DNA of 64,000 bases from an uncultured delta proteobacterium (lineage in GTDB: Bacteria > Myxococcota_A > Polyangia > Polyangiales > Polyangiaceae): positions 352,001 through 416,000 of the forward strand of contig CAVOKF010000004.1 of the NCBI GenBank assembly GCA_963696385.1, given 5' to 3'. How positions within the stretch are numbered: the stretch's first letter is position 1; the number at the start of each line of letters is the position of its first letter. Below the pieces are notes generated by a model. That model was not told where the DNA came from, made no database searches, and saw only the letters and a list, made by a program, of their open reading frames with translations. The position numbers were made by a program, and so were the translations under genes. Below are positions 29,294-52,959 of this stretch, in pieces.

Positions 29294-31120
29294 ATGGAAA
29301 AGCGTAAAAAGACCGCAGTCGAAAGCGGAGTACTCATCGCCATCGTTGCGGCGATACTCGTGGCCCTGAACGCCCTCTCGGCGCTCGGAATCTACGCGCG
29401 CAAAGACGTGACGAAGACCGAGAAATTCACTCTCTCGAAAGGCAGTGGGGCGCTGCTCCGATCGATGAAGCAGGACCTCACCGTCGATGCGTACGTGACC
29501 AAGGGCCTTCCGAAGCTCGATGCGTTCGTCCGCGACCTGCGCGATTTGCTGCAGGAGTACTTGAACGCGAGCGGCGGCAAGTTCCACTACACGATCATCG
29601 AGCCCAAGGACGAGGACACCAAGAAAAAGGCCAAGGAGGCGGGGCTCGTCGAGCAGCCGTTCGGAGAGGCGACCGACGAGAAGGAAGCCGTCACGGAAGG
29701 CTACATGGGTTTGGTCTTGCGCTACGGCGAGCAGCAAGACGTCATCAAGTTCTTGCCCCCGGACCGCACCGACGGTCTCGAGTTTTGGATCACGAACAAG
29801 ATCCGAGAAATTCGGGACAAGGGCGATGACATCCATCACAAGATCGGGGTTCTCACCGGCCACGACGAGATCAAGCCGAGCGAATCGAATTTGGCGCCGA
29901 GCAGCATGGGCAAGTTCGCCATGCAAACGATCGTCACGCAGAATTTTCCCTTCTATACGTTTCAGGACGTGGACCTGAAAGGCGGTGACGTCCCGGTTCC
30001 CGACGAGCTCGACGGGCTCCTCATCACTCAGCCCGGCAAGGACATCTCGGAGAAGGAGCTCCGGCGCATCGACCAGTTCGTGATGAAGGGCAAGTCGCTG
30101 GCTCTGTTTGCCAGCGCCGTGAACGTCAAAGCGAACGATGCGTCGATGGACGCGAGCCTCAACCTGCACGGGCTCGACAAGCTGCTCGGCGGCTACGGCA
30201 TCGACGTCGACCGGGACGTCGTGCTCGATCTCTGGCACCACGTTCGGCTGATCGTGCCGACGATGGGCGGTATGGCGAGCGCGGAGCTTCAGGCCATCCT
30301 CGATGTCCAGGACGATCCGCGGTTTGCGGGCAGCGAACAGCTCATCGATACGAGCTTTCCGTGCCTGTTCCGCGTTCAGGATCTCGCGGTTCCCTTTGCA
30401 TCGAGTCTCACGTTGAAAGCCGACAAGCAGCCCGGCGCAAAGATGCGTGTCGTCGCTCGTTCGTCGCCTTTCTCGGTGCACCTGACGGGCGACACCGTCG
30501 ACCTCAAGCCCTTTCAGAAGTGGGCGGGCAAGCTCAAGGGGCTCAAACAAGAGCAGTACACCATCGGCGCCGACGTCGAGGGGACGCTGAAGAGCGCTTT
30601 CGCGGGCGGCGGCGAGAACCAGGGCGTCGACGCGCCGGCGGAGAGCGCCAAACCGGCTCGTGTATTTCTCCTTTCGTCGTCGCAGTTCCTGACGAATCCG
30701 CTCGCGCGCGCAGGCAACGGCCCGGACATGGGTCAGTACGGCATGATGATGCCGAACCTCGGGGGCGACGAACAGTTGATCGCTTTGGCCGGCCCCTACA
30801 CGCAGCAATTCGTGACCGGCTCGATTCTCGTGTTCAAGAACACGCTCGACTGGTTGAGCGGCGACACGGACTTGCTTGCCGTCAGCGCAAAGCTCTTGAG
30901 CGATCCGAACCTCGTCTACGGCGACAAGATCAAGGTCACGCCGGATGAGACCGAGGAGCAGCTGCGCAAACAGGAGGACGAGCTCAAGGCTGCTCGAAAA
31001 GACGAGCAGCGCAACATCGAAGTGCTGCTCATTCTCGGCATCCCGCTGCTCTTCGGGGCGTACGGTCTCGCTCGGTGGCGCTTGCGGATGAACGCACGCT
31101 CGCACGTCTCGCTCGCGTAA
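29294..31120 (+). CDS. GldG-like ABC auxiliary component
   Basis: DVTKTEKFTLS, GYMGLVL, IGVLTGHDE, IDQFVMKG, NTLDWL; N- and C-terminal TM anchors. Confidence 0.85.
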   Translation: MEKRKKTAVESGVLIAIVAAILVALNALSALGIYARKDVTKTEKFTLSKGSGALLRSMKQDLTVDAYVTKGLPKLDAFVRDLRDLLQEYLNASGGKFHYTIIEPKDEDTKKKAKEAGLVEQPFGEATDEKEAVTEGYMGLVLRYGEQQDVIKFLPPDRTDGLEFWITNKIREIRDKGDDIHHKIGVLTGHDEIKPSESNLAPSSMGKFAMQTIVTQNFPFYTFQDVDLKGGDVPVPDELDGLLITQPGKDISEKELRRIDQFVMKGKSLALFASAVNVKANDASMDASLNLHGLDKLLGGYGIDVDRDVVLDLWHHVRLIVPTMGGMASAELQAILDVQDDPRFAGSEQLIDTSFPCLFRVQDLAVPFASSLTLKADKQPGAKMRVVARSSPFSVHLTGDTVDLKPFQKWAGKLKGLKQEQYTIGADVEGTLKSAFAGGGENQGVDAPAESAKPARVFLLSSSQFLTNPLARAGNGPDMGQYGMMMPNLGGDEQLIALAGPYTQQFVTGSILVFKNTLDWLSGDTDLLAVSAKLLSDPNLVYGDKIKVTPDETEEQLRKQEDELKAARKDEQRNIEVLLILGIPLLFGAYGLARWRLRMNARSHVSLA

Positions 31121-31138
31121 GGGATCCGATCGGACACA

Positions 31139-32194
31139 ATGGCCATGTCACGCGAAAAACTCATCATCATCGGCGCCGTCGTCTTGGGGCTTCTCGGAGT
31201 GCTCGTCTATCGCCAGATGAAGCAGGACGAATCGTTGGGAGCCGCCCCCGCGATTGCCGTGCAGTTTCCGAGCGTCAATGCGCCCGACGACATCGACAAG
31301 ATCAGCGTCACGAACGGTGAGAAGCCGGAGGTGGTGCTGGAGCGAGTACCCGATCCGAAGGGCACGCCGACGGACGCAGGCCCTGCGACCAAATGGGTTC
31401 TGACCAAGCCGTTGCACGCCGAGGCCGGTCAGCAGGCCGTCAAGGATCTGATCGCCAATCTCAAAGACATCAAGGTCGAGTCGCAAGTGAATCTGAGACT
31501 CGACGACGAGGTCAAAAAGGAAAAGCAGCTCGATGCCGCGCACGCGCTTCACCTGGTCGCGTGGAAGGACGGCGACAAAAAGGTCGACGAGTTTTTCGGA
31601 AAAAGCGGGGCCGCCGGACAGCTGGTGGTCGTGGCCGACAAGCCCGGCGCGGTCTGGGCGGCCAAGGGGTACTCGTCGTACCTCTACGCGAAAGAGCCGA
31701 AGGATTTTCGCGACAAGGAGATCGTGCACTTCGATGACGCGAGCATCGGGGCGGTGACTCTCGTCAACTCGCACGGCACCTTCGCGTTCACGAAGGTCGA
31801 CGGGAAGTGGACCGGGCTACTCGGCAAAAAGCCCATTGAGCGGCTGGACCAAGAGAAGGTCAAAGACATGCTGCGCGCGTACAAGTCGCTGAGCGCCGAC
31901 GACTTTGGCGACGGAAAGTCGCTTGCCGAAACGGGCCTCGACAAGCCGGAGGCGCAGGCGACATTCCAGTCGAAGGGCGACGAGCCCAAGACGTACGGGA
32001 TATGGCTCGGCAAGATCTCGAACGGCACCGACCGCTGGGCGAAGCGGGCCGAGGACGACGCCGTGTTCCAGATCACCAGCTACGCGGCCGATTGGTTGAC
32101 GGCCGATAGCTCCAAGTACCAGTCTCCGCTGGACGGGGGCGCCGCCGGCGGCGGCGGACCCAAGAAGACCAAGAGCGACGCGGGCAAGAAGTAG
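31139..32194 (+). CDS. DUF4340-like membrane-anchored periplasmic protein
   Basis: N-terminal TM; ETGLDKP motif; position after a gldG-like gene is typical. Confidence 0.75.
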   Translation: MAMSREKLIIIGAVVLGLLGVLVYRQMKQDESLGAAPAIAVQFPSVNAPDDIDKISVTNGEKPEVVLERVPDPKGTPTDAGPATKWVLTKPLHAEAGQQAVKDLIANLKDIKVESQVNLRLDDEVKKEKQLDAAHALHLVAWKDGDKKVDEFFGKSGAAGQLVVVADKPGAVWAAKGYSSYLYAKEPKDFRDKEIVHFDDASIGAVTLVNSHGTFAFTKVDGKWTGLLGKKPIERLDQEKVKDMLRAYKSLSADDFGDGKSLAETGLDKPEAQATFQSKGDEPKTYGIWLGKISNGTDRWAKRAEDDAVFQITSYAADWLTADSSKYQSPLDGGAAGGGGPKKTKSDAGKK

Positions 32195-32306: not shown

Positions 32307-33410
32307 CTACCCCGACCGGAAAGCCGAACGCACGCCGCGGCGGCCACGCCGCCGGACCGAGGCCTCACAACGGACGGCCGCGCACGTGCGAAGCCGCCAC
32401 TGGGCTCGCCCGGCACGCCTGTCCTGAGAGCCTGACCGCGCTCGGACCGCCGGAGAGATCCGGCGGGCCTGGCCGAACCGATCAGTGTGCTTTTCGAAAA
32501 TATCCATCACGTCGCCGAGCAGCTTGAGCGCCTCGGCGCGGGGTCGCTGGAACGCGTTTCGTCCCATGATGCTGCCGAAGCCTCCGCCCGCGGCGATGCC
32601 CCGCACGTCCTCGAGCAGCTCCTCGGTCCCTTTCGTTTCGCCGCCCGAGAAGATGACGACACGCTTGCCGTTGAAAGAGCTCTGCACGACGTGGCGGACA
32701 CGATCGGCCATCGTCTTTGTCGGAATCGCGTACTTTTCGAACACCTTCTTGGCCTCGGCCTGCTCGATGAAGTCCTTCGGCGGCTTGACCTTCACGATGT
32801 GCGCGCCCAGCTCGCAAGAAATGTGGGCGGAGTAGGCGACGACGTCCACGGCCTGCTCGCCCTCTTTCGAGAGCCCCGACCCGCGCGGGTAAGCCCAGAC
32901 GATCGTGGGAAGCCCCACCTCTTTCGCTTCACGGATGAGCTCCCGAAGCGCCTCGTACATCGGGTTTCGCGCGGCGGATCCTGGGTAAATCGTGTACCCG
33001 ATGGCAACGCAGCCGAGCTTCACCGCGTCCTTGACGCTCGCGGTCACGGCGCTGATCGGCTGGTCAATTTTCGCCAGCGAGTCGGAGTTGTTCAGTTTGA
33101 GTATCAGGGGAACCTGCCCTGCGAACCGATCGGCCGACGCTTCCAGGAACCCGAGCGGGGCGGCATACGCGTTGCATCCCGAGTCGATCGCGAGCTGCAC
33201 GTGGTAGTCGGGGTCGTAGGCCGGTACGTTGGGCGCGAAGGACCGAGCTGGGCCGTGCTCGAACCCTTGGTCGACGGGCAGAATCACGAACTTGCCGGTG
33301 CCTGCCAACGCACCATGGTTCATCAAGCGAGCGAGGTTGGTCTTCACCCCGACGTTGTCACTCGAGTACCACGATAAAATGTGTCTCACACGATCGGTGG
33401 CGACGGCCAT
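32307..33410 (-). CDS. fbaB: Class I fructose-bisphosphate aldolase (DhnA/FbaB type)
   Basis: LPVDQGFEHGP, GYTIYPGS, WAYPRG, AHIVKVK, GSIMGRNAFQR; the last ~58 codons look like low-complexity read-through. Confidence 0.92.
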   Translation of the reverse strand: MAVATDRVRHILSWYSSDNVGVKTNLARLMNHGALAGTGKFVILPVDQGFEHGPARSFAPNVPAYDPDYHVQLAIDSGCNAYAAPLGFLEASADRFAGQVPLILKLNNSDSLAKIDQPISAVTASVKDAVKLGCVAIGYTIYPGSAARNPMYEALRELIREAKEVGLPTIVWAYPRGSGLSKEGEQAVDVVAYSAHISCELGAHIVKVKPPKDFIEQAEAKKVFEKYAIPTKTMADRVRHVVQSSFNGKRVVIFSGGETKGTEELLEDVRGIAAGGGFGSIMGRNAFQRPRAEALKLLGDVMDIFEKHTDRFGQARRISPAVRARSGSQDRRAGRAQWRLRTCAAVRCEASVRRRGRRGVRSAFRSG

Positions 33411-34568: not shown

Positions 34569-35394
34569 GTGACCGCCCCGCCGCACGGACCGCCGTGGAG
34601 TCTGCCGATCCCGCAGGCGCCGCTGGCGTTCGTGGATCTCGAGATGACGGGACTCGACGTGGATCACGATCGCGTCGTCGAAGTGTGCGTCGAGCGCTTC
34701 GTTGGCGCTGCTTGCGTCGCGTCCGTCAGCTCGGTCGTCGCATCCCGGGGTTCGCATCGGCGGCGCGGCGGAGGTCCACGGCATCGGTCCCGCCGAAGTC
34801 GCGGGAGCGCCGACGTTTGCAGCGATCGCCGGTTCCATCCTGGCGGTTCTCGACGGCGCGATCCTGGTCGCGCATGCGGCGTCGTGGGATGTGAAGTTTC
34901 TGCGCGCCGAGTTTGCTCGTGCCGGCGAGCCGGTCGAGATCGACTCCTGGCTCGATACGTTGATCCTGGCTCGGCGCGCTTTCGCCTTCCGGTCGTATTC
35001 GCTCGATGCGCTGTGCCGAGAGCTTGGCATCCAACGGGGCCGAGCCCATCGGGCCGAAAGCGACGTGCGCGCTCTTCGGGACCTGTTCGGGCGCTGCGTC
35101 GCCGTCCTCCAGCCGGTGAGCGCGCGCGATCTGTGGGAAGTGCGCATCGGCGACCGACGTGCGCGGCAAGCCATCGTCGACGCGTGCGAGGCGGCCGCCA
35201 AGCACAGAGCCCCGGTCGTGTTGACGTATCGCGCGGCGCGCCGGGCGGCCGAATCGATGTCGATGGTGGTCGTCGAGGTCCGATCGGACCTCGACCCGCC
35301 GCAGGTTGTGGGGTATCAGCTCCCGGGGCGCGGCAGGCGGCAGCTTCGGGCCGACCGCATCCTCCACGTCGAGCCCGCCCCCGCCCTTCCCTGA
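34569..35394 (+). CDS. DEDDh 3'-5' exonuclease with a C-terminal WYL-like domain; +1 frameshift near 34740
   Basis: Frame 1 FVDLEMTG...SSVV joins frame 2 HPGVRIG...VAHAASWD...HRAESD; C-terminal VVLTYR...VVGYQL...RRQLRADRILHVE. Confidence 0.8.
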
Positions 35395-38541: not shown

Positions 38542-38665
38542 CCTCGGGCGGGCGGGCCTCCAGACCGCTCCTGCCGAGGGATCGCGCCCCCAACGGTGGG
38601 CTCCGAGCCACCGCAGGATGGCGCCACGCAGCCGAGCAATGACCTGCAATCCATAGGTTACGGTT

Positions 38666-38681
38666 TGGCACGCCTTGTGCT
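38666..38681 (+). promoter_or_regulatory. Putative sigma54 promoter of the multiheme lipoprotein operon
   Basis: TGGCACGCCTTGTGCT = GG-N10-GC, 24 nt upstream of ATG 38706 with a GAGGGAG RBS. Confidence 0.72.
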
Positions 38682-38705
38682 GATTCACGCGGTGAGGGAG
38701 TTTGC

Positions 38706-41031
38706 ATGAAACGCCGATGCACAGCGCTGACCGTGTTCGCGCTCGCGGGTGCCATCGCCCTGACGAGCGGCTGCACCCAATCGACCGAGGCGAGCGCCGT
38801 GGGAGTGCAGGCCATCCTGTTTATCCAGCGCCAGACCCTCGTGACGACGACCAATCCCGACGGCACGACGACCCAGACGTTCGACGTCGACACCGGCAAC
38901 ACTCAGGTGCTCGACTACACCCGTTACGAGCCCGGAGGCAGCTTGAACCTGCTCTCGCCGGCCCGCTCGGACGGCACGAAGACCAACCTGACCTCGGCGT
39001 TCACGACTGCCGATTTCAACGGAGCCGACGTCTCGTTCGACGGCACGCAGGCCGTCTTCTCGATGAAGACCAGCCCGACCGACAACTACCACATTTATAC
39101 GGTTGATCTCTCGCCAGGGGCGGATGGCAAATTTGGAAATGCACCAAAAGACCAATGGTGCCTGGAACGACGTGAGTCCCATCTACGTGCCCGGCGGTCT
39201 CATCGCATTCGTGACCGACCAAATGTACACGGCGATGGGAACCCGCCACGACGAGTACGAGCATGCGCGCGGTTCGCTGCAGCTGGCGACCATCAGCGTC
39301 GATGGCGGAGACGCGGATCGTCACCTGTTCACGCAAAATCTGTCCCACTCGGTCGCACCGTTTCTTCGCTACGACGGGAAAATTGGCTTTTCGCAGTGGG
39401 AGCATTTCGGCCCGGTCAACGACGTCAAGCTTCGCGCCGTCAACCCCGACGGTACGCAGGAGGTCGCCGTAGGCGGCCAGCACGACAACGGCGGCAACGA
39501 GACGAAGCCCTGCAACGCCCTGTTTACAGCACGAGAGCTTTCGCCCAACGTCATGATCGGCATCGGCACGGCACGCGACCGGACCATTCACGCCGGAGCG
39601 CTCGTTCAGATCGACTCGCGAAACCAGACCGATCCGGTATGCCTCGATGCCAACGCGTACACCAACGGCGGCACCGTCGGGCACGCGTGCCTCGACGAGG
39701 AGCACACGGCGTATTCGGTCTTGACCCCGGACGTGCCCCTTACCGCCGACCCTTCCGCGACCTCCGTGGGCCGGTACCGCGAGCCGAGCCTCTTGCCCGA
39801 TGGGCGCATCCTCGTTTCCTGGGCCGACGGCTCGGTCAACGATCAGAACGAGCTGTCGCTGACGCCGCCGGACTTCGGGATCTACCTGTTCGACCCGAGC
39901 ACCGGCAAGAACGAACTGGTCTACAACGAACGCACGACCTGGGAGCTCAATGCCCTCGCGGTCATGGCCCGCACCGAGCCGCCGGTCATTCCGAGCGCTC
40001 AGCATGTCCAAGACTCCACCATCGCGGCGCATTTCGGATCGGTCGATATTTCCCAGACGTCTCTCAACGAAACGGTGGACGGCGCGGAGTTCGCGAACGT
40101 TCCGCTCGGCCAGGCGCTGCACGAAGGTGCGGTCGCCGTGCGTGTCATCGAAGGCTTCTCGACGGAGTCTACGCCCGGCGTGTCGATGTTCGGATTGACG
40201 CTGTTCGAAGGTGCGGCCGTGCTCGGCGAGGCGCCGGTGTTCAACGACGGCAGCTGGCTCGCGGACGTGCCACCGTACTTGCCCATCCACCTGCAGCCCA
40301 TTGACGAGTACGGGCTCGCGATCCGCAATCAGCAGCTGTGGATCAAAGGCATGCCGGGCGAGACTCGCCGCTGCATTGGCTGTCACGAATCCCGCACGGA
40401 CCCGGGTGTGTTGGCACTCGGTCAGAACCCGACGGTCGCCGAGCAGCAAGGCGCTCAGCCGTTCACCGAAGCCATCGCGGACCGAACCGAGTTCCCATGG
40501 GACAAGAAGGTGCAGCCGATCCTCGACGCCAAATGCGTCAGCTGCCACAACTCGACCACGACCACGTATTACGATCTGACGCAAACCGACCCGGTGACCG
40601 GGCTATCGACGACCTATCAGATCCCGACCCTCGATCTGTCGAGCACACCCATCACGGTCTATTACGACGAGAGCGTGGCCACTTGGCCCGCGTCGTACGT
40701 GTCGATCTTCTATCCGGCGACGATTCAGATGGCGGGCGATTCCACCGGCCAGATCACGGCCGGCATTGTGCCGCCGATGTGGGGTGTGCCAGGAAGCGCG
40801 CGCGCATCCGTTCTCACGCAGACGCTCAACCTGCGCGCAGCCGACGGGACGACGGCCTGGCCGATTTCCACCCATCCACTGCACCCGGAAGACCAGGGGG
40901 TTCAGCTGACCGACGCCGAGCGAAAGACGATTGCGGTGTATCCGATGGACCTCGGCGGGCAATTCTACTCTCGTCAGAATACCAACTTCGTGCCGTTCAC
41001 GACCGGCGACCCGGTCACCCCGGCTCAGTGA
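38706..41031 (+). CDS. Lipoprotein with beta-propeller-like region, hydrazine-synthase-alpha-like middle domain and two CXXCH sites; +1 frameshift at about 39135
   Basis: Lipobox LTSGC; removing one G in TTTGGAA joins DGKF to EMHQKTNG (about 774 aa); VRVIEG...LGEAPV..DGSW...VP...PIDEYGLAI...GETRRCIGCHE; VQPILDAKCVSCH. Confidence 0.8.
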
Positions 41032-41045
41032 TTACCGAGGACGCC

Positions 41046-41993
41046 ATGAGATTGCGAAAGATGAAATGGCTCAGGCTCGCCTTCGGTTGCGCCTCTGTCT
41101 GGGCCGCGACCTTTGCTTCGATCGATGCCCGGAGCGATTCGCCGCCGGTGCAAGTGACGCCGAACGCGGACGCGGGCGGCTTCGCCTCGGTGTACGGGCA
41201 GATTCCGCCGAGTCAGGTCGAGTTCTTGTCGACGCCGGAGTCGATCAAGAACGCGGCCGCCACAGGGGGCCCGTCGTTGGTGTGGGAGGTGCTCGAGCAC
41301 GGCGAACGAGTCGAATGCCTCGACTGCATCCCGTTCGTCGCACCGCTGATCTACGCCTCGGACCCGCGGGTGCGCGAGATTGCGGCGTGGTGGTTGCGCC
41401 GCCGCGTCTTGGGCGTCTTCGGGCCCGGACAAGTCTACCAGCAAACGATCCAAACTCTGCAGAGCGACCCGGATCCCCTTCGCCGTTCGTACGCCGCAAC
41501 CGCGTTGGGCGAGTTCTTCGCGCCTCCCGGAGTTGCGGCGTGCGCGGCCGCCCTGAGCGACAGCAGCGCGATCGTTCGGGCCGCCGCCGCCAGCGCACTC
41601 GGCCGGCTCAACAGCGACGGAAACGGCGCGCTCTCCACCGCTCTGTCCGATTCCGACTCAGGGGTCAAGCTGGCCGCGTTGTCGGCGGCGGAACGCATCA
41701 ATTCCTTCGTCGCCATCGCCAACGTCGCTGCTCTGACGACCGACCCGTCGGCCGACGTCCGTCGGCGCGCCATCGAAGTGCTCGACACGCTGGACGCCGC
41801 CGATACCGTCGTGGCCGTCACGGCTGCGGCGCAGAACGATTCCGATGCGACCGTGAGAGCCGAGGCGTGTCATGCGCTCGGCACCTTCGGCGACCAAGCC
41901 CCGAGCGTGCTTTCGGTCCTCCAGCAGCTCGAGACCCAGGACCCGGACACGTTCGTGCGCGACGAGGCTCAAATCGCGCTGCTGAGGCTCTGA
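41046..41993 (+). CDS. Secreted HEAT-repeat protein with a CXXC motif
   Basis: Signal peptide; HGERVECLDC; repeated LxDxxxxVRxxAxxALG units. Confidence 0.85.
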   Translation: MRLRKMKWLRLAFGCASVWAATFASIDARSDSPPVQVTPNADAGGFASVYGQIPPSQVEFLSTPESIKNAAATGGPSLVWEVLEHGERVECLDCIPFVAPLIYASDPRVREIAAWWLRRRVLGVFGPGQVYQQTIQTLQSDPDPLRRSYAATALGEFFAPPGVAACAAALSDSSAIVRAAAASALGRLNSDGNGALSTALSDSDSGVKLAALSAAERINSFVAIANVAALTTDPSADVRRRAIEVLDTLDAADTVVAVTAAAQNDSDATVRAEACHALGTFGDQAPSVLSVLQQLETQDPDTFVRDEAQIALLRL

Positions 41994-42014
41994 CGGAGCG
42001 GCTACCATGATGCC

Positions 42015-45000
42015 ATGCGCCTTGCGAGCCTTGCCGGTGGCCTGATCGCTGCCGCCGTCGGTGCGTTCGCGGTGTCGTCGTGCACGACGCTCGAGCCGCA
42101 GCCGTCGACCTACTTCGACAGCACGATTGCTCCGGGCCTGCAGACCTCGTGTGTGCGGAGCAATACCGGCGCGGGGTGCCATGTCGCCGACGCCAAGGGC
42201 AATGCCTTCGGCAACCTCGACTTGACCAGCTTCGATGGCATCAACCGCAGGCGCGATCTGCTCATCGATTACGGGCCGTACCTGCAACCGGGCTTGCTCG
42301 TGAAGAACATCGGGCCGTTTCAGGTCACCGTCGCGCTCTGGGACGGCACGAAGGTTCTGGTCACCACCGACATCAAGCACGTCGGAGGCGCGGTCCTCGA
42401 TCCGACCGGGGGCGACTATCAGACGCTCCGAAGATGGATCGAAAACGGGGCGACGGTGAACAATACCGGAGTCCCTCCGTCCGACATTTCGACGACCCCC
42501 TGCACGGACGTCGTTCCGTCGGCAGCGGGGTTCGACCCGACGACGGACCCGGCCACCGCCGATTATCCCGTGTTCGTTCAAAGCGTCCAGCCGGTGCTCT
42601 GGAACCCGGCGTCCACTGACTCCTGCGCCTCGGGCAATTGCCACGGGACGATCGTCAATGCGCTGTACTTGACCTGTGGCACGAGCGCGGAAGAGGTTCG
42701 GTGGAACTACTTCGCGGCGGTGAACTACCTCGCGGCCACGGCCGAGGACAGCGAGATCGTGCGGCGTCCGTTGGCCAGTTCCCAGGGCGGCAGTTACCAC
42801 GAGGGCGGTCCGATCTTCGCGTCCGTCATGGACCCCAACTACCAGGCGCTCGTCAACTGGGCGCAAATGCACGGGCCCGTGCAGACCGGTCCGCTCGATC
42901 CGGCATTTCTTTTCTTTGCCCAGAAGGTGCAGCCTGTGCTCGCGAAGAAGGGCTGCATGATGGCGCAGTGCCATTCGGCGGCGATGTTTCACGACTTCCG
43001 ATTGCGTGGCGGATCCGCCGGCAGTTTCTCGCTCACGACGACGCAGAGAAACTACGCGTTCTCGGTGGGACAAATGTCGTTCGAGAGCGACGACGTCAAT
43101 GCCAGTCGTCTCGTGCGGAAAAACCTGTTCCGTCCCGATCTGCTCGACGGATCCACGGGCATCACGCATCGCGGAGGCCCGTTGTTCGAAGACTTCGGGT
43201 CGGTCGACAGCGACGCGTCGCCGGGCACGATCGAGGCCCCCGATCGCGGCGCGCTCTGCGACGGCCACATGCCCGCCTACGACTACGACAACGGCGACGT
43301 CGATGCGATTCCCGCGTATTGCGTCGTTCGCGAGTGGCATCGGCGTGAGCGTGTCGAGCGGGCACTCGCCGCGGTTTCGGCGGTCGTCTACGTGAGCCGG
43401 CCCATCCCGGCGGCGCCGGATCGGGCGCAGGACTTCGACGTATTTGCGGGCGGAGCCAGCCTCCATATCGCGGCGGCGACGTTCCAAGCGTCCGGATTGC
43501 AGATCGGGACCGACCAGGCCGTCGACCTTTCGACCTGCGGCTTGGGCACTTCGCCGGACGTTCGCCGGCCCGCGGTCTCGTGGGATGGTGCGACGATCGC
43601 CTTCGCGGCTCGCGCGACGGCGAGCGATCCTCTGGCGATCTACACGATGAACGCCGACGGCACGGGCTGCGCGGAGCAGCCGGACATCTCGGCGATGCAC
43701 GACGCCTCCCTGACGAGCGTTCCGAACGGCGACAGCATCCTCGTGCACGATTTCGATCCGGCTTTCAGCCCGCCAGGGCCGGACGGCGTGCAGCGCATCG
43801 TCTTCGCATCGACGCGCGGCAACCTCGATTCGAACGGTATCGCGACCACTATCCCGGCGTTCGACTACTCCGGCCCACAGCGCACGCCGTCCGACCCCAC
43901 CAAGCCGAATGCGAACCTCTACGTGCTCGAGCCCGATCCCAGCGGATCGGGGACGCTGCGTGTCCGTCAATTGACCTGGCAGCTCGACATGGAGCGCTTT
44001 CCGAGCTTCATGGATGACGGGCGACTGGTTTTCACCGTCGAAAAGCGCGAGCCCGGGTTTTATCAGTTGGCGCTCCGCCGACAGAATCTCGACGGCGGCG
44101 ATTACCATCCGCTGTTCGCTCAGCGTGGAAGCATCGGCTACGCCCAAGCGACGAGTGTCGTGCAGTTGTCGGACAAGAATTTCGCCGCCATTTTCAGCGA
44201 CGTCACGGCGCAACACGGCGCGGGTGCGGTCGCCGTGTTCAATCGCTCGATCGGCCTCGACTTCACCAGCCCGAATGCGAGCGACTATCCAGTCGACCCG
44301 ACCGTCATCGTGCCCTCCTCGGCCTCCGCTCCCGAGGCCGATTTCTTCCTGCACTCGCTGAGCCCGCCGTTCGTGGACGGATCGTACTCGAGCCCTTCGG
44401 CCCTGCCGGACGGCCAAATGCTCGTCAGTTACGGCGCCGGCGATCCGGCCACCTTCGGGGGCGACTACGACGTGTACGTGATGGACCCCGCGACAGGCCA
44501 GAAGGCGAAACTGCTCGGGACCGCCGGCACGGCCGAGGTCGATGCCGTGGCCGTATACCCTCGGGTTTCGAAAGGCATTTTCGCTTCGAGGCCGGACGAG
44601 CCGAACGGCAACACGTCCGTGCAAGTCGGTCAGACCACGGCGGACGTGACGGTCTTGAACATGCCGGTCCTCGCGTCGCTCCTTTTCCAAAACACGCCTA
44701 CCGGCCGCTTGGTCGAGGCGGACCTCAAGAGCTTCGACGTCTGGGAGGAACTTCCACCGGACGTCATGAGCTTTCCGGCATGTGGGGACAACAACACGGT
44801 ATGTGACTCATTGGGGCCGTCCGGCATGGTTTACGTACGGCGCAGACTTGTCGGAACGGTGCCGCTCTTCGCCGACGGATCAGCCCATTTCCTGATCCCC
44901 GGAGGACTACCCATTCTGCTGCACCTTCCGGCCGATTCGGAGTCGGCCCGCATGAACCTGCCGCGCTGGCAGCGTGAGACGATGACGTTCGTGCCCGGCG

Positions 45001-45212
45001 AGAACGCGCGGCAGTCGTTCTCCACGACATTTTTCGACAATCTCTGCGCCGGCTGTCACGGCGCCATCAGCGGTCGTCCGGTCGACGCAGCGCTCAATCC
45101 CGATTTTCTCACGCAGGCCTCTCAGGTGCAGTCCGTCGGAAGTCCCGCCACGGACTGTTCGGGGCCTCCGGGATCGCGAGGACCGGTGCAGGGCCCGCCG
45201 TCGTCGCCGTGA
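42015..45212 (+). CDS. Large multiheme lipoprotein: three cytochrome-c-like repeats, TolB-like propeller, HZS-alpha-like domain
   Basis: Lipobox AVSSC; CVRSNTGAGCH, CASGNCH, CMMAQCH; PAVSWDG/DPAFSP/PSFMDDG propeller blades; LVGTVPLFADGSAHFLIP...CAGCH. Confidence 0.8.
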   Translation: MRLASLAGGLIAAAVGAFAVSSCTTLEPQPSTYFDSTIAPGLQTSCVRSNTGAGCHVADAKGNAFGNLDLTSFDGINRRRDLLIDYGPYLQPGLLVKNIGPFQVTVALWDGTKVLVTTDIKHVGGAVLDPTGGDYQTLRRWIENGATVNNTGVPPSDISTTPCTDVVPSAAGFDPTTDPATADYPVFVQSVQPVLWNPASTDSCASGNCHGTIVNALYLTCGTSAEEVRWNYFAAVNYLAATAEDSEIVRRPLASSQGGSYHEGGPIFASVMDPNYQALVNWAQMHGPVQTGPLDPAFLFFAQKVQPVLAKKGCMMAQCHSAAMFHDFRLRGGSAGSFSLTTTQRNYAFSVGQMSFESDDVNASRLVRKNLFRPDLLDGSTGITHRGGPLFEDFGSVDSDASPGTIEAPDRGALCDGHMPAYDYDNGDVDAIPAYCVVREWHRRERVERALAAVSAVVYVSRPIPAAPDRAQDFDVFAGGASLHIAAATFQASGLQIGTDQAVDLSTCGLGTSPDVRRPAVSWDGATIAFAARATASDPLAIYTMNADGTGCAEQPDISAMHDASLTSVPNGDSILVHDFDPAFSPPGPDGVQRIVFASTRGNLDSNGIATTIPAFDYSGPQRTPSDPTKPNANLYVLEPDPSGSGTLRVRQLTWQLDMERFPSFMDDGRLVFTVEKREPGFYQLALRRQNLDGGDYHPLFAQRGSIGYAQATSVVQLSDKNFAAIFSDVTAQHGAGAVAVFNRSIGLDFTSPNASDYPVDPTVIVPSSASAPEADFFLHSLSPPFVDGSYSSPSALPDGQMLVSYGAGDPATFGGDYDVYVMDPATGQKAKLLGTAGTAEVDAVAVYPRVSKGIFASRPDEPNGNTSVQVGQTTADVTVLNMPVLASLLFQNTPTGRLVEADLKSFDVWEELPPDVMSFPACGDNNTVCDSLGPSGMVYVRRRLVGTVPLFADGSAHFLIPGGLPILLHLPADSESARMNLPRWQRETMTFVPGENARQSFSTTFFDNLCAGCHGAISGRPVDAALNPDFLTQASQVQSVGSPATDCSGPPGSRGPVQGPPSSP

Positions 45213-45260
45213 GGGCTCACGCGGAGCGTGACGCGGGGGCGATTTTGCGTAAATAGCGGC

Positions 45261-47390
45261 ATGCGCCTTTCGCGGAGTGGACTCGCCGCCCTACTGCCGT
45301 CCGCCGTCGCCTTCGCCGCATGCGGCTCGGGGGCCCTGCCCCCCCCCCGGGGACCCGTAACCGTCGCCCCTAGCGCTGCCCCGTCCGCTGCGTCGGGCGC
45401 GGCCGATGCCGGTGCCCCGGTGCGGCTGAGGGGACCCGACGAATCCGCGCTCGATAGAACGGCGCAGCCGTGCGACGACTTTTACGAGTTCGCTTGCGGC
45501 GGCTGGATGAAGTCGACGCCCATCCCGGAGGACGAAGCGAGCTGGGTGCGCAGTTTCAGCGTCATTCACGACGAAAACATCAAGGCCCTGCGAGACATCC
45601 TCGAACGGGACGCCCGCGGTGACGTGCGCGGAGATGCGTACGGCAAGCAGCTCGGCGACCTCTGGTCGTCGTGCATGGACGAAGCCAGCGTAGAGCGCAA
45701 AGGTCTCGACGAACTGCGACCGGAGCTCGATGCGATCGATCGGGTCCGGGACGCTCGGTCGCTCATCGAGGAGCTCGCCCGACTTCACTCGATAGGGGTC
45801 GGCGCCGCGTTCGGTTTCGACAGCGAGATCGACTTCAAGGACGCATCGCGCATGATCGCGGGTGTCTCACAGGGCGGTCTCGGACTCCCGGAGCGCGATT
45901 ACTACTTTCGGACCGACCCGCGCACGAAGGCCATACGGAACGAGTATTCGGGGCACGTGGCGCGCACGTTCGAGCTGGTCGGTGAAACTCCGGCGGCGGC
46001 GCAAGCCGACGCGGCGGCCGTCATGAGGATCGAGACGCGGCTCGCCCACGCGTCGATGACGAACACCGACCTGAGAGACCCGCAAAAGGTGTATCACCTG
46101 CTCAACCTCGAGGGTCTGAAGAAGATCGCTCCGGACGTCTCGTGGGATGTCTACCTCGATTCGCTGGGATTCCCGAGCATCGTGTCGATCAACGTCGCCG
46201 AGCCGGACTTCGTGAAAGAGTTCGACGCGATGGCCAAGTCCACCGACTTGGGCGAGTGGCGAGCCTATCTTCGCTGGCACCTCGCGGCCTCGGCGTCGCC
46301 GTGGCTGTCGGAGCGTTTCGTCGCCGAATGGTTTCACTTTCGTCAAGTGCTGACCGGAACGAAGGTGCTGCAGCCCCGGTGGAAGCGCTGCGTACGGTTC
46401 GCGGATCAATGGATGGGCGAGGCGCTCGCGCAACCGTTCGTTCGAGAGACGCTGGGCGAGGACGGAAAGCGAACGGCCGAGCAGATGGTGGCCGGCATCG
46501 AAGAGTCGATGAAGGGCGACATCGAGTCGCTGTCGTGGATGGATGACGCGACCCGCCTCAAAGCGGAAACCAAGCTCGCGAAGATCACCAACAAGATCGG
46601 TTTTCCCGCGAAGTGGCGCAGCTACGACGGGCTCGCGATCGATCGGTCGTCGTTCGTGCAGAATGCCGAGCGTGCGACACAGTTCGAAGTGCGACGCCAG
46701 CTCGCGAAAGTGGGCAAACCCGTCGACAAGGACGAGTGGGAAATGACTCCGCCGACGGTCAATGCGTATTACGAACCGACGATGAACGAAATGGTGTTCC
46801 CGGCGGGCATTCTTCAGGCCCCATTTTACAGCAACACTCAGGCCGCGCCGTTGAACTTCGGCGCGATCGGGATGGTGGTCGGCCACGAGCTCACGCACGG
46901 ATTCGACGACGAAGGACGCCAGTTCGACGCGGAGGGCAACTTGCGCGATTGGTGGTCGCCGGCCGTCGCCGCCGAATTCGACAAGCGCGCGAAGTGCGTC
47001 GAAAGGCAATTCGACGAATACGTCCCGATCGATGACGCGCACATCAAAGGAAAGTTGACCCTCGGCGAGAACATCGCCGATCTTGGGGGCGTGAAGCTAT
47101 CGTTTGCCACGTTCGAGCGCGCCGAAAAGACCCATCCGACCGCGACCGTCCCAGGCGGGTTCACGCCCGAGCAGCAGTTCTTTCTCGGCTTCGCGCAGTC
47201 GTGGTGCGCAAATTATCGCCCCGAGTCACTGCGTCTGCTCGTGGCCACCAACCCCCACTCGCCGCCCAAGTTTCGGGTGAACGGTCCGCTCTCGAACGTC
47301 GGCGAATTCGCGGCGGCATTTCAGTGCAAGGAGGGATCGCCGATGGTCCGAGGCGGGCACGACCCGGGACCACGCTGCGAAGTGTGGTGA
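45261..47390 (+). CDS. M13 family (neprilysin-like) metallopeptidase lipoprotein
   Basis: Lipobox FAAC; PCDDFYEFACGGW, VNAYY, GHELTHGFDD, GENIAD, HSP, terminal CEVW. Confidence 0.96.
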   Translation: MRLSRSGLAALLPSAVAFAACGSGALPPPRGPVTVAPSAAPSAASGAADAGAPVRLRGPDESALDRTAQPCDDFYEFACGGWMKSTPIPEDEASWVRSFSVIHDENIKALRDILERDARGDVRGDAYGKQLGDLWSSCMDEASVERKGLDELRPELDAIDRVRDARSLIEELARLHSIGVGAAFGFDSEIDFKDASRMIAGVSQGGLGLPERDYYFRTDPRTKAIRNEYSGHVARTFELVGETPAAAQADAAAVMRIETRLAHASMTNTDLRDPQKVYHLLNLEGLKKIAPDVSWDVYLDSLGFPSIVSINVAEPDFVKEFDAMAKSTDLGEWRAYLRWHLAASASPWLSERFVAEWFHFRQVLTGTKVLQPRWKRCVRFADQWMGEALAQPFVRETLGEDGKRTAEQMVAGIEESMKGDIESLSWMDDATRLKAETKLAKITNKIGFPAKWRSYDGLAIDRSSFVQNAERATQFEVRRQLAKVGKPVDKDEWEMTPPTVNAYYEPTMNEMVFPAGILQAPFYSNTQAAPLNFGAIGMVVGHELTHGFDDEGRQFDAEGNLRDWWSPAVAAEFDKRAKCVERQFDEYVPIDDAHIKGKLTLGENIADLGGVKLSFATFERAEKTHPTATVPGGFTPEQQFFLGFAQSWCANYRPESLRLLVATNPHSPPKFRVNGPLSNVGEFAAAFQCKEGSPMVRGGHDPGPRCEVW

Positions 47391-50290: not shown

Positions 50291-51193
50291 ATGACGCGAA
50301 TGTTCCGTGCTCCCAGCCGTTGGCGAGCCCCCATGACCGGGGGCTCGGTCCCCCGCAATCTCGGGCCGATCGCGACCGCGCTGGCAGCGGCCGTGGCGTG
50401 TTCGCAGGGCGCCGGCGATCAGGTGACGCCCCCCGTCGATCTGGGGATGACCAGCACGATTGCCCCCTATTACAACGACGGCAATCTCACCTTGTATCAG
50501 GTGAACATGCCGATTCCGCTGCCGGTTCGTCGTCCGACGGCAGACGAGTCGCAGGGCCTCGGGCCGGCACCCTCGGGCACGCCGTACCCTCATGCGCCAT
50601 TTCTGACGGCCGGCGACGAGAGTCTCGAGGTCCATTACGTCATTTCCAATCTGGACACGGCACCCCACACCGTGTCGCTGCTCATCGACCCGTGGAACGA
50701 ATTCGTACGATGGAGTCCCGGGGTGACGGTCGTCAGCGACGACGAAACCGTTCCGAATTTCGGCTACGACTTGAGTTTCTGGGTCGACGCGCTGTCTCGG
50801 GTGGAGGGTGACATGACGCAGGACGACACGCAGGAGATCGCGATCAAGCTCGCCGCCGTCGAAAATGTCCTGTCCCAGCAGCAGACCGTTGCGACGTCTG
50901 CCATGGACAACGGTTCGCCGGATGCGACGACGCTCGTCAACCATATCTTCGATGCCCAGAACTGGTCGAACACCGGCGACCCGCTTTTTGATCCGTGGAT
51001 CCCTCCCGTCATCGCGGGTCTGACCGGCTTCGATCTCGGACTTCGCACCGTCGACGGTCCCGCCAACATCGCGGTCGAGATCACGATGCAAGTCGAGGAC
51101 CTCAACGGCAACCGTTTCGTGGTTCAGGGTTCGAACGTGCCGCAAATGGGCATCCCCGCCACGGTGCTCTCCCCGCCCGCGGCGCGCTTCTAG
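50291..51193 (+). CDS. Hypothetical acidic lipoprotein
   Basis: Lipobox-like AVAC; strong coding-style codon usage; start may be 50334. Confidence 0.72.
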   Translation: MTRMFRAPSRWRAPMTGGSVPRNLGPIATALAAAVACSQGAGDQVTPPVDLGMTSTIAPYYNDGNLTLYQVNMPIPLPVRRPTADESQGLGPAPSGTPYPHAPFLTAGDESLEVHYVISNLDTAPHTVSLLIDPWNEFVRWSPGVTVVSDDETVPNFGYDLSFWVDALSRVEGDMTQDDTQEIAIKLAAVENVLSQQQTVATSAMDNGSPDATTLVNHIFDAQNWSNTGDPLFDPWIPPVIAGLTGFDLGLRTVDGPANIAVEITMQVEDLNGNRFVVQGSNVPQMGIPATVLSPPAARF

Positions 51194-51264: not shown

Positions 51265-52707
51265 CTAATCCACACTTCCGAGTTTGCGCTCGATGGCCTC
51301 GATGTGCGCGCGCACCTCGGGGTCGTTCGAGCGAAGGGCCTCCACCTTGCGAACGGCGCTGATGATGGTCGTGTGGTCGCGATTTCCGAACGCGCGACCA
51401 AGCTCGGGAAAGCTGCACTTCAAGCGCTGCTTGCACAAGTACATTGCAACGTGGCGGGCGAACGCGATGCTCTTGTGCCGATCTTTCGAGAGCAGATCGG
51501 TCGATCGAAGCTTGAAGTGGTGGCAGACGACGCGCTGAATGTCCTCGACGCTCGCTTCGTTGGGGCGTGACGTCCCGGTCGCCGCAATCTCGGTGCGCGC
51601 GAAGTCGAGCTCGATCGGCTTGCCGAGCAATGAGGCCTTGGCCGCCAGGCGGATGAGCGTTCCTTCGAGCTCCCGAACGTTGCTTCGAACGCTTTGTGCA
51701 ATGTACACGCATACGTCGTCGGCGAGCTCGATGTGCTCGAGTTGGGCTTTCTTTCGGACGATGGCCACGCGGGTCTCGAGCTCGGGCGCCTGGATGTCGG
51801 CGACCAGTCCCCATTGAAAGCGCGACACGAGCCGCTCCTCCATCTTGTCGAGCTGCTGAGGATACTTGTCGCTCGTGACGACGATTTGCTTGCTCGCCTG
51901 GTGGAGTGCGTTGAAGGCGTGAAAGAACTCTTCCTGCGTTTGGGTCTTTCCGGCCAGAAAGTGAATGTCGTCGACCAGCAGCAGGTCGCATCGATCGCGG
52001 TATCGAGCGCGAAAATCGTGCATGCGCTGATCGGTCAGCGCTTGAACGAACTCGTTAACGAACTTTTCGGCGCTGATGTAGACGATGCGGGCTTCCGGCC
52101 GTTCGTCGCGAACTCGGTGGGCGATGGCGTGGACGAGGTGCGTCTTTCCGAGACCGGTGCCGCCGCAGACAAACAGCGGATTGTGCCGCCTGCCGCCCGC
52201 CCCCGCGGCGGCCATCGATGCAGCGTGGGCGAGCTGGTTCGAGGGGCCGACGACGAAGTTCGCGAAGGTGTATTTTCCGTTGAGGCCCTCGAGGAGGGGA
52301 GCGAGAGCGAGCGCGCGCGACGGCAGCCCTGGCGGAGTCGAGCGCCGAACGCCACCCTCTCCCGGCCGAGACATGGAGTCGTCCGGAGCGGGTGGTCGGA
52401 CCGACAAGGCGCGCGGCTTGACCGGTGCAAAAGGCGCGGGCCGGTCGGCGACGGGGCGATCCAGCGCCCCGTCGATGGTCCAACGCACTTGAATGCTCAG
52501 GCCCGTGTTCGCCGCGAGCCGCTCGCTCAACGTGGGCAAAAAATAGTCGTCGACCCATTGCCGAACGAAGTCGTTGCGCGCTCGCAGCGCGAGCACACCG
52601 TCCGTCAGGCCGTCGAATTGAACTCCGGAAAACCACTGATCGAAGCTCGCGGGCGATTTTTCGCGCGTGAAAGCAACGGCCTCACCCCAGCTCCGCTCGC
52701 CTGACAT
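51265..52707 (-). CDS. dnaA: Chromosomal replication initiator DnaA
   Basis: YTFANFVVGPSN, NPLFVCGGTGLGKTHL, LLVDDIHF, RLVSRFQWGL, NVRELEG, RDHTTI; GAGGT RBS before MSGERSW. Confidence 0.97.
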   Translation of the reverse strand: MSGERSWGEAVAFTREKSPASFDQWFSGVQFDGLTDGVLALRARNDFVRQWVDDYFLPTLSERLAANTGLSIQVRWTIDGALDRPVADRPAPFAPVKPRALSVRPPAPDDSMSRPGEGGVRRSTPPGLPSRALALAPLLEGLNGKYTFANFVVGPSNQLAHAASMAAAGAGGRRHNPLFVCGGTGLGKTHLVHAIAHRVRDERPEARIVYISAEKFVNEFVQALTDQRMHDFRARYRDRCDLLLVDDIHFLAGKTQTQEEFFHAFNALHQASKQIVVTSDKYPQQLDKMEERLVSRFQWGLVADIQAPELETRVAIVRKKAQLEHIELADDVCVYIAQSVRSNVRELEGTLIRLAAKASLLGKPIELDFARTEIAATGTSRPNEASVEDIQRVVCHHFKLRSTDLLSKDRHKSIAFARHVAMYLCKQRLKCSFPELGRAFGNRDHTTIISAVRKVEALRSNDPEVRAHIEAIERKLGSVD

Positions 52708-52959
52708 CGAAGGCACCTCACGCACACGACCCAGGGGTGTTCCATCCAAGTCGCCGTGCTCGTGGATGGGCATTGCGGCCTGCGCCAATTCACTCGACAA
52801 CCAACCAACTTCGACGTTCAGCCCCATGACCCCAGTCCCTTCGCGACAAATTCCCAAAGCTCCGCTGCGATGCGCTCGCGGGCCAAGCGGCACCGGGGCT
52901 CGCCGGCCCTCAGCGGCCTACCCGCACCCCGTGCAACGAACACCAGCGGTCACCACACG

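Follow-up and report, generated by a model that had tools for sequence, protein, structure and literature searches.

A conserved three-gene operon of Polyangia with two hydrazine-synthase-alpha-like multihaem lipoproteins and an exported HEAT-repeat protein: a candidate six-haem oxidoreductase

The closest described system to the operon considered here is hydrazine synthase (HZS) of anammox bacteria. In its alpha subunit HzsA ('Ca. Kuenenia stuttgartiensis', PDB 5C2V/5C2W; Pfam PF18582; NCBIfam NF052339), haem alphaI is ligated by Tyr591 and His587 binds zinc (PMC12607021, accessible part). The zinc is shared with Cys303, a residue that is not kept in all anammox bacteria (PMC12758564, accessible part). 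According to the same accessible text (Hagglund et al. 2025), the non-anammox alpha homologues of clades I-IV are tied to beta-gamma neighbours and no function is confirmed among the top matches outside anammox; clade I lacks His772, clades II-III lack alphaII, and an FG-GAP gene occurs in clades I-III. The supplement of that paper contains at least eight Polyangia proteins (672-977 amino acids) with weak HZS-A matches. A broad enzyme family has been suggested for hzs-like genes (Suarez et al. 2023, PMC10732223, accessible part). We describe here an operon of three genes (the triad) at positions 38,666 to 45,212 of a 64,000-nucleotide stretch of DNA (the window; contig CAVOKF010000004.1, positions 352,001 to 416,000), the closest named relatives of which are uncultured Polyangiaceae. 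The triad is a tightly conserved, uncharacterised variant within the already catalogued HZS-alpha-like family. Its genes and haem-related sites are as follows:

38706..41031, forward strand: gene 1, a lipoprotein of about 774 amino acids with a predicted full HZS-alpha build
39250..39483, forward strand: gene 1 propeller-loop residues D182-E183-Y184, H214, W231-x-H233, N238 and H259, compared in 44 orthologue rows
40372..40386, forward strand: haem alphaI motif CIGCH of gene 1; C, C and H in 44/44 orthologue rows
40534..40884, forward strand: haem alphaII motif CVSCH of gene 1 with distal His726 (40882); the four residues in 44/44 rows
41046..41993, forward strand: gene 2, an exported HEAT-repeat protein of 315 amino acids
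42015..45212, forward strand: gene 3, a lipoprotein of 1065 amino acids with N-terminal cytochrome domains, a propeller and an HZS-alpha middle domain
42102..43361, forward strand: tri-haem module of gene 3; three haem motifs, each with a second His

We favour, at a probability of roughly 0.55, the reading that the operon, under sigma-54 control in Polyangia that respire oxygen, codes for an oxidoreductase with six haems, anchored by lipid and located outside the cytoplasmic membrane, a view derived from sequence comparison and predicted structures. Catalysis would take place on gene 1, where a haem alphaI with ordinary His ligation would lie next to the conserved His, Asp and Glu residues of the propeller face. 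An electron relay of four bis-His haems, three from the domains of gene 3 and one from alphaII of gene 1, would replace the missing gamma subunit, and the alphaI-type haem of gene 3 would occupy a diverged second site. Gene 2 would be a partner tied most closely to gene 1, with a dithiol that would help in assembling or redox-servicing the complex. As for the chemistry, a small diffusible molecule would undergo a multi-electron reaction while oxygen is present, the substrate being a guess: a peroxide- or oxygen-linked reaction is the most likely option, itself offered tentatively, and N-oxide turnover, the next in line, looks rather unlikely.

The relationship to HZS-alpha had been proposed in a first-pass annotation of the window, and profile and structure matches of both proteins support it. 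In a hidden Markov model search with Pfam HZS_alpha (PF18582), gene 1 scored 60.1 bits against a cut-off of 26.6, whereas gene 3 stayed below it (18.2 bits, E 0.0038); many close relatives of gene 3 carry precomputed PF18582 matches. Gene 1 was modelled via the intact orthologue of the relative L052 (predicted local distance difference test, pLDDT, 82.9; predicted template modelling score, pTM, 0.82), and this model matched 5C2V_A with Z 32.8 and a root-mean-square deviation of 3.4 over 582 aligned positions (Foldseek E 1.5e-29). The gene 3 model (pLDDT 85.5, pTM 0.88) matched 5C2V_D with Z 32.3 and a deviation of 3.6 over 479 aligned positions (chain range 31-668). Hydrazine synthase alpha was the best structural match of both, followed by TolB propellers with Z about 26; identity to 5C2V alpha in the structural alignments was 16-24%. 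When gene 3 was used in a wide structural search, propellers alone were listed and 5C2V was not among them; this search barely probed the N-terminal module, for which no solved-structure match was obtained. The gene 3 profile matched the gene 1 family with a probability of 100% (E 1.3e-47). As modelled, gene 1 carries the whole alpha build, that is, a six-bladed propeller, a middle domain with the haem alphaI motif and a C-terminal bis-His alphaII domain. Propeller, middle domain and alphaII domain, the last with the equivalent of His772 (chain residue 745 of 5C2V; gene 1 His726/727, kept in 44/44 rows), are thus what the triad shares with HzsA.

The predicted active site differs from that of HZS. 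No equivalent of Tyr591 is present at haem alphaI of gene 1, the profile alignment to 5C2V having a two-residue gap there, and no conserved Tyr follows the haem alphaI motif in the aligned rows of genes 1 and 3. H259 aligns with HZS Cys303; the position holds His in 28, Phe in 8, Glu in 6, Gly in 1 and Asp in 1 of the 44 gene 1 rows, and never Cys, and the matching position of gene 3 is Arg in 66/66 rows. The other propeller-loop residues of gene 1 were found in most or all of the 44 rows (D182 in 42, E183 in 43, Y184 in 43, H214 in 42, W231, H233 and N238 in all), and the set is also common in 57 more distant rows. We infer from these alignments that the cluster is a candidate catalytic or metal-binding site beside haem alphaI.

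That the triad is a true hydrazine synthase, or forms N-N bonds by the anammox mechanism, is most improbable. Its best structural and sequence match is 5C2V and His772 is retained, but against the 800-bit cut-off of the HzsA equivalog model (NF052339) the C-terminal frame of gene 1 reached 55.6 bits and gene 3 16.3 bits, and the hosts carry oxygen-respiration genes. Three queries found no beta-gamma-like gene in the window genome; a gene of that kind was no recurrent neighbour of the triad, and one query gave matches in 14 of 201 Polyangia genomes, 12 of them carriers of the triad, leaving 72 of the 84 carriers without a match at E 1e-15. Judged from its sequence, the triad is not a hydrazine synthase, because it has neither Tyr591 nor Cys303 and the window genome yielded no beta-gamma partner. 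Further differences from HzsA, a soluble enzyme, are that the triad proteins of this fold are lipoproteins, that they form a pair of diverged paralogues where HZS has a single alpha subunit, that gene 3 bears three extra N-terminal haem domains and that there is a HEAT partner. A bolder version of the favoured reading, which we regard as speculative and doubtful, would make the triad a beta-gamma-independent alpha/alpha-prime enzyme in which haem alphaI works with a non-haem metal on H214, H233, H259 and carboxylates, is served by its own four-haem relay, and carries out an undescribed nitrogen-oxide or oxygen chemistry. If this were true, abundant aerobic soil myxobacteria would display the kind of chemistry that gave rise to the alpha site of hydrazine synthase.

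The published HZS-like clades resemble the triad in their canonical, His-ligated alphaI, the two-residue gap at Ser590/Tyr591, the lack of Cys303 and an untested function. The triad is set apart from them by the absence of beta-gamma genes, by retention of His772, and by having two paralogues with a HEAT/CxxC gene; the single-gene Polyangia paralogues L089, L092, L094 and L096 (below) fit these clades better. No mention of the triad arrangement was found in the accessible parts of PMC12758564 and PMC10732223. The term 'undescribed' used in the first-pass annotation thus needs limiting to the three-gene arrangement, since non-anammox homologues of its alpha-like proteins are already described there, as uncharacterised.

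Six haem-c motifs had been noticed in genes 1 and 3, and all six were found (40372, 40534, 42150, 42624, 42954 and 45045). Gene 3 has three N-terminal haem domains, a propeller and a middle domain with the motif CAGCH (45045); the C-terminal alphaII domain is absent. Its tri-haem module consists of domain 1 (C46-X8-C55-H56 with H122; CX8CH at 42150), domain 2 (C204-X4-C209-H210 with H262; CX4CH at 42624) and domain 3 (C314-X4-C319-H320 with H385; CX4CH at 42954). All twelve residues were present in 66/66 rows, among which are many close kin, and the first motif was CX6CH or CX8CH throughout; the module probably holds three bis-His haems. Domains 2 and 3 are repeats of each other (profile probability 96.9%, E 2e-10); profile comparison relates them only weakly to domain 1 and to alphaII (probability 8-67%). 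In the ESM Atlas, the N-terminal part fell into unnamed or cytochrome c clusters at 0.89-0.92. For genes 1 and 3 together, the conserved motifs point to four bis-His haems and two alphaI-type haems. The four are probably electron-relay haems, because their second His is invariant.

Gene 2 had been described as a protein with a CLDC motif and HEAT repeats, and this stands: Pfam HEAT_2 was matched at E 1e-27, a signal peptide was read from the sequence, and the CxxC (CLDC, 41316-41327) lies at the start of a predicted helix. C91, C94, E84, R110, W115 and W116 were found in 50/50 rows, and an invariant R-E-x3-WW-x3-R motif is present. Because the CxxC is invariant, a thiol-redox or maturation role appears equally possible for gene 2 as the scaffold role assigned to it earlier. 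The ESM Atlas placed gene 2 in generic HEAT clusters only. A prediction of the complex from fragments (gene 1 orthologue 32-759, gene 3 30-149, gene 2 56-202), with gene 2 as partner, scored 0.00 in both runs and carries no weight either way.

CcmH and NrfFG combine a CxxC with TPR repeats, and HEAT-type CpcE/F lyases attach tetrapyrroles to Cys. Gene 2 could be a dedicated maturation factor and no lasting subunit, its CxxC keeping cysteines reduced and aiding haem attachment at CX6-8CH, after the manner of CcmH, NrfF-NrfG and SirG for NrfA and SirA; this account, which would be compatible with genes 1 and 3 as a redox enzyme, is possible if less than probable. Like CcmH/CcmI, NrfF/NrfG and SirG, gene 2 is an exported CxxC helical-repeat protein encoded with a cytochrome of atypical haem motif, and such motifs require dedicated factors in other bacteria (PMC6976685, accessible part); the resemblance is one of build only. 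The two cysteines are not followed by His, a relative (L085) has CGPC at this position, and a divergent dsbD gene accompanies eight loci. Unlike those helpers, gene 2 has HEAT repeats and no synthetase gene adjoining, and the CcmH domain (PF03918) gave no match at E 0.1. The only PF03918 match of the window genome lies elsewhere, beside ccmF, and the genome has CcmF- and CcmH-type maturation genes of its own; the neighbourhood of the triad shows no recurrent ccmF copy dedicated to it. Paralogues without an adjoining gene 2 also have CX4CH motifs, and the tighter linkage of gene 2 is with gene 1, in which all motifs are canonical. A CpcE match of gene 2 (E 1.4e-5) was far below the cut-off and reflects generic HEAT similarity only.

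Conservation of the triad was surveyed in a class-wide sample of 201 Polyangia genomes (at least 90% completeness). All three genes were present in 84 genomes and all three absent in 117, none having only one or two. Set aside before this count were five genomes with weak HEAT-only matches, nine in which gene 1 was matched only weakly (E 5.8e-28 or worse) and G413, where gene 3 had matched a single-gene paralogue located next to a beta-gamma-like gene. Genes 1 and 2 are adjacent in 81 of the 84 carriers, the other three being split over contigs, and genes 2 and 3 in 76; gene 3 is retained even where it has moved away (for example, 40 kilobases off in G246). The same gene order was found in 19 of 20 loci taken from the best gene 3 matches within the order (one with a 1.9-kilobase insert), the last ending at a contig edge, and in seven of eight loci from gene 2 matches, mostly in other orders, the eighth being cut by a contig end. 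A tally of 86/151 takes in one unpublished genome (G123), on which nothing else stated here depends. Across the phylum, the gene 1 profile matched 26 of 301 sampled genomes, all in the class Polyangia; the wider alpha-like family comprised 3080 representatives at E 1e-10.

Extracellular electron transfer had been among the options of the first-pass annotation. As an outer-surface conduit in anaerobic respiration, the triad would have multihaem lipoproteins in its favour, together with near-identical DNA in peat, wetland and soil sequencing runs and distant paralogues that adjoin DUF3570 and ApbE genes. A cytochrome c oxidase subunit I match was, however, found in 83 of the 84 carriers and in 77 of the 117 non-carriers (kin are not independent in these counts), so that the triad occurs in only one of the 41 genomes without such a match. 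Among the clustered loci no porin, transmembrane or signalling gene recurred beside the triad. Unlike MtrCAB-type porin-cytochrome conduits, the proteins have single-haem domains and no stacked multihaem chain, and the decahaem family TIGR03507 was matched at 13.4 bits (cut-off 209.3; E 0.019). The conduit is therefore disfavoured, because nearly all carriers have a cytochrome c oxidase gene and no porin recurs beside the triad, and we consider it very unlikely. The earlier view of the operon as a whole was in this way borne out in part: HZS-alpha kinship, conservation of the triad and the haem ligands stood, and the export of electrons is disfavoured.

The distant single-gene paralogues of Polyangia carry domains 2 and 3, the propeller, alphaI and alphaII in one chain (9/9 fetched). 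Their joining in these fusions suggests a common function of alphaII and the N-terminal haem domains. We infer that the triad arose by duplication of such a fused gene, the copies then becoming specialised: one would have kept the D-E-Y, N-x-S-H and W-x-H motifs and alphaII, and the other would have lost them and gained a third haem domain. Five paralogue loci (L089, L092, L094, L096 and L090), with four-haem HZS-alpha-like genes, were annotated; a beta-gamma-like propeller gene was found in four, DUF3570 in three, and ApbE, FG-GAP, thioredoxin or peroxidase genes in single ones, and DUF1501 is also among the cluster genes. In L090, one paralogue copy lies directly upstream of cytochrome c and nitrous oxide reductase genes. 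Extracytosolic redox clusters with ApbE, DUF3570, thioredoxin and DsbD (PMC8238504, accessible part) are similar in that such clusters host the distant paralogues and dsbD flanks the triad in eight loci; they differ in that neither ApbE nor DUF3570 genes recur next to the triad itself. Some triad-bearing genomes (L097, L098, L099 and L100) have a second, stand-alone copy of gene 3 (41-44% identical), with gene 1 and gene 2 not adjoining.

Upstream of gene 1, three regulatory features were located:

38576..38591, no strand assigned: palindrome with the family consensus GGGGG-N6-CCCCC, centred about 82-83 nucleotides upstream of the sigma-54 site
38595..38612, no strand assigned: weaker second palindrome between this element and the promoter, seen in the window
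38666..38681, forward strand: predicted sigma-54-type -24/-12 promoter (GG-N10-GC), conserved in relatives

The sigma-54-type promoter of the earlier account was confirmed as a prediction: the sequence at 38666, TGGCACGCCTTGTGCT, has the GG-N10-GC spacing, and the site is kept upstream of gene 1 in most relatives. A site scoring at least 8/10 against the consensus was present in 31 of 43 relatives, compared with 5/43 on the opposite strand and 0/43 inside the gene. Sigma-54 promoters are known for upstream activator sites of the position and symmetry seen here, and the GGGGG-N6-CCCCC element is likely to be the binding site of a sigma-54 activator because both fit. Of 37 relatives, 22 have it with a 9-10/10 match, centred 78-86 nucleotides upstream of the sigma-54 site (mean 0.2 and maximum 2 in 300 shuffles); the 37 are the 43 relatives less L052, which nearly duplicates the window, and five whose promoter site is weak or uncertain. 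A second copy of the palindrome is centred 48-62 nucleotides upstream in many relatives. Spacing and upstream activator-type site, the two marks of a sigma-54-dependent promoter, are thus both present and conserved by position. In the window genome, element plus promoter gave the top composite score (31.2, against at most 23.6 at control distances).

Three other genome sites scored slightly above the control (26.6, 26.2 and 25.9 against 23.6) and were rejected as regulon members, one lying inside a gene, one in an integrase region and one before a molybdopterin-type gene (a label read from the translation). Of the 16 strongest lone elements, 14 were inspected, and 13 of these lacked a good sigma-54 site. 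When the same pattern was searched in five relatives, the operon was recovered in four, together with five other places against seven control matches. A strong copy of the palindrome at window positions 50337-50356 overlaps the start of a lipoprotein gene (50333-51193, no Pfam match) and has no sigma-54 site at the expected distance.

A conserved promoter and upstream element of its own would also suit a role in a sigma-54-controlled stress or developmental programme, either as a sensor of redox state or gases through haem or as an envelope complex without catalysis. TolB-like propellers as interaction platforms and the patchy loss of the triad inside families (11/34 in f28 and 7/15 in f1, for example) are consistent with such a role. 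No transmembrane or signalling partner recurs beside the triad, and six conserved haems with a family-wide polar cluster fit catalysis better; we hold a sensor or structural role to be unlikely.

Several observations weigh against the six-haem oxidoreductase favoured here. H259 is His in 28 and H186 in 36 of the 44 rows, which weakens a strict metal-site interpretation, and the position of the His cluster and its distances to the haems are taken from homology to 5C2V and predicted secondary structure. Gene 3 lacks the D-E-Y and W-x-H propeller motifs. In HZS, haem alphaII lies beyond electron-transfer range of the other haems (PMC12607021, accessible part). Co-loss is expected of any operon and is no proof of a complex, 77 genomes with an oxidase match are without the triad, and no recurrent neighbour names a substrate or an electron donor. 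Finally, the regulon search gave no further element plus promoter clearly above controls, and regulation therefore gave no clue to function.

No characterised orthologous operon was found in a literature search; with subscription papers and preprint supplements outside its reach, this search likewise gave no description of the triad, of CX6CH/CX8CH haem motifs or of the GGGGG-N6-CCCCC element. How hydrazine synthase originated is an open question. Present in 84/201 sampled genomes of a common soil class, the triad is a compact single-operon version without beta-gamma genes and so a convenient system in which to learn the role of the alpha fold outside anammox. Two further points of interest are the CX6-8CH haem motif, for which gene 2 is a candidate dedicated helper, and the putative activator site, which is conserved and whose bound protein would reveal the inducing signal.

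The operon layout was largely as first described. Genes 1, 2 and 3 are separated by gaps of 14 nucleotides (41032-41045) and 21 nucleotides (41994-42014), and genes 1 and 3 are lipoproteins according to a signal peptide with Cys23, invariant in 20/20 and 21/21 aligned rows. Gene 1 had been taken as one open frame; in the assembly this frame is broken by an extra base:

39135..39136, forward strand: extra base shifting the frame of gene 1, absent from L052 and from contigs of runs X1, X2 and X15

The break is an assembly error, because the base is missing from L052 (94% nucleotide identity; gene 1 intact, 774 amino acids) and from contigs of the DNA runs X1 and X2 and the RNA run X15 (X7 contigs do not reach the site); gene 1 as a pseudogene was ruled out on the same grounds. 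The X2 contig shows no other differences from the window sequence, and X1 or X2 is possibly the source sample of the window assembly. An RNA-run contig spans 38708-40634, which is no proof of transcription; no contig covers gene 3 in the one RNA run compared, which carries no weight. Small indel errors are scattered over the assembly: one extra base near 34740 also splits an exonuclease gene (Pfam RNase_T, window 34569-35394) that is continuous in L052, and the aldolase gene is affected at its end by two single-base gaps, near 32473 and near 32497.

A gene for an M13 metallopeptidase lipoprotein (window 45228-47390, forward strand) follows gene 3 in many close relatives; it is not part of the conserved module, because it is absent at more distant loci. 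In L041-L051, from several families, a divergent dsbD flanks the triad (divergent from gene 1 in eight of the clustered loci; annotated for L041), and membrane protein, DUF4398 and OmpA genes follow it. The dnaA gene lies about 6 kilobases downstream of the operon (window 51265-52893, reverse strand), and the triad is probably near the replication origin in the window genome; this proximity is not shared by most relatives' loci. Elsewhere in the window genome (G000:C1:113839-124100), multihaem cytochrome genes with 5 to 19 motifs each lie beside cytochrome c oxidase subunit I, possibly as a porin-cytochrome or metal-oxidation locus. At window positions 29294-32194 (forward strand), a gene pair with ABC_transp_aux/DUF7088 and DUF4340 domains was seen, which we take to be Gld-type ABC transporter accessory genes.

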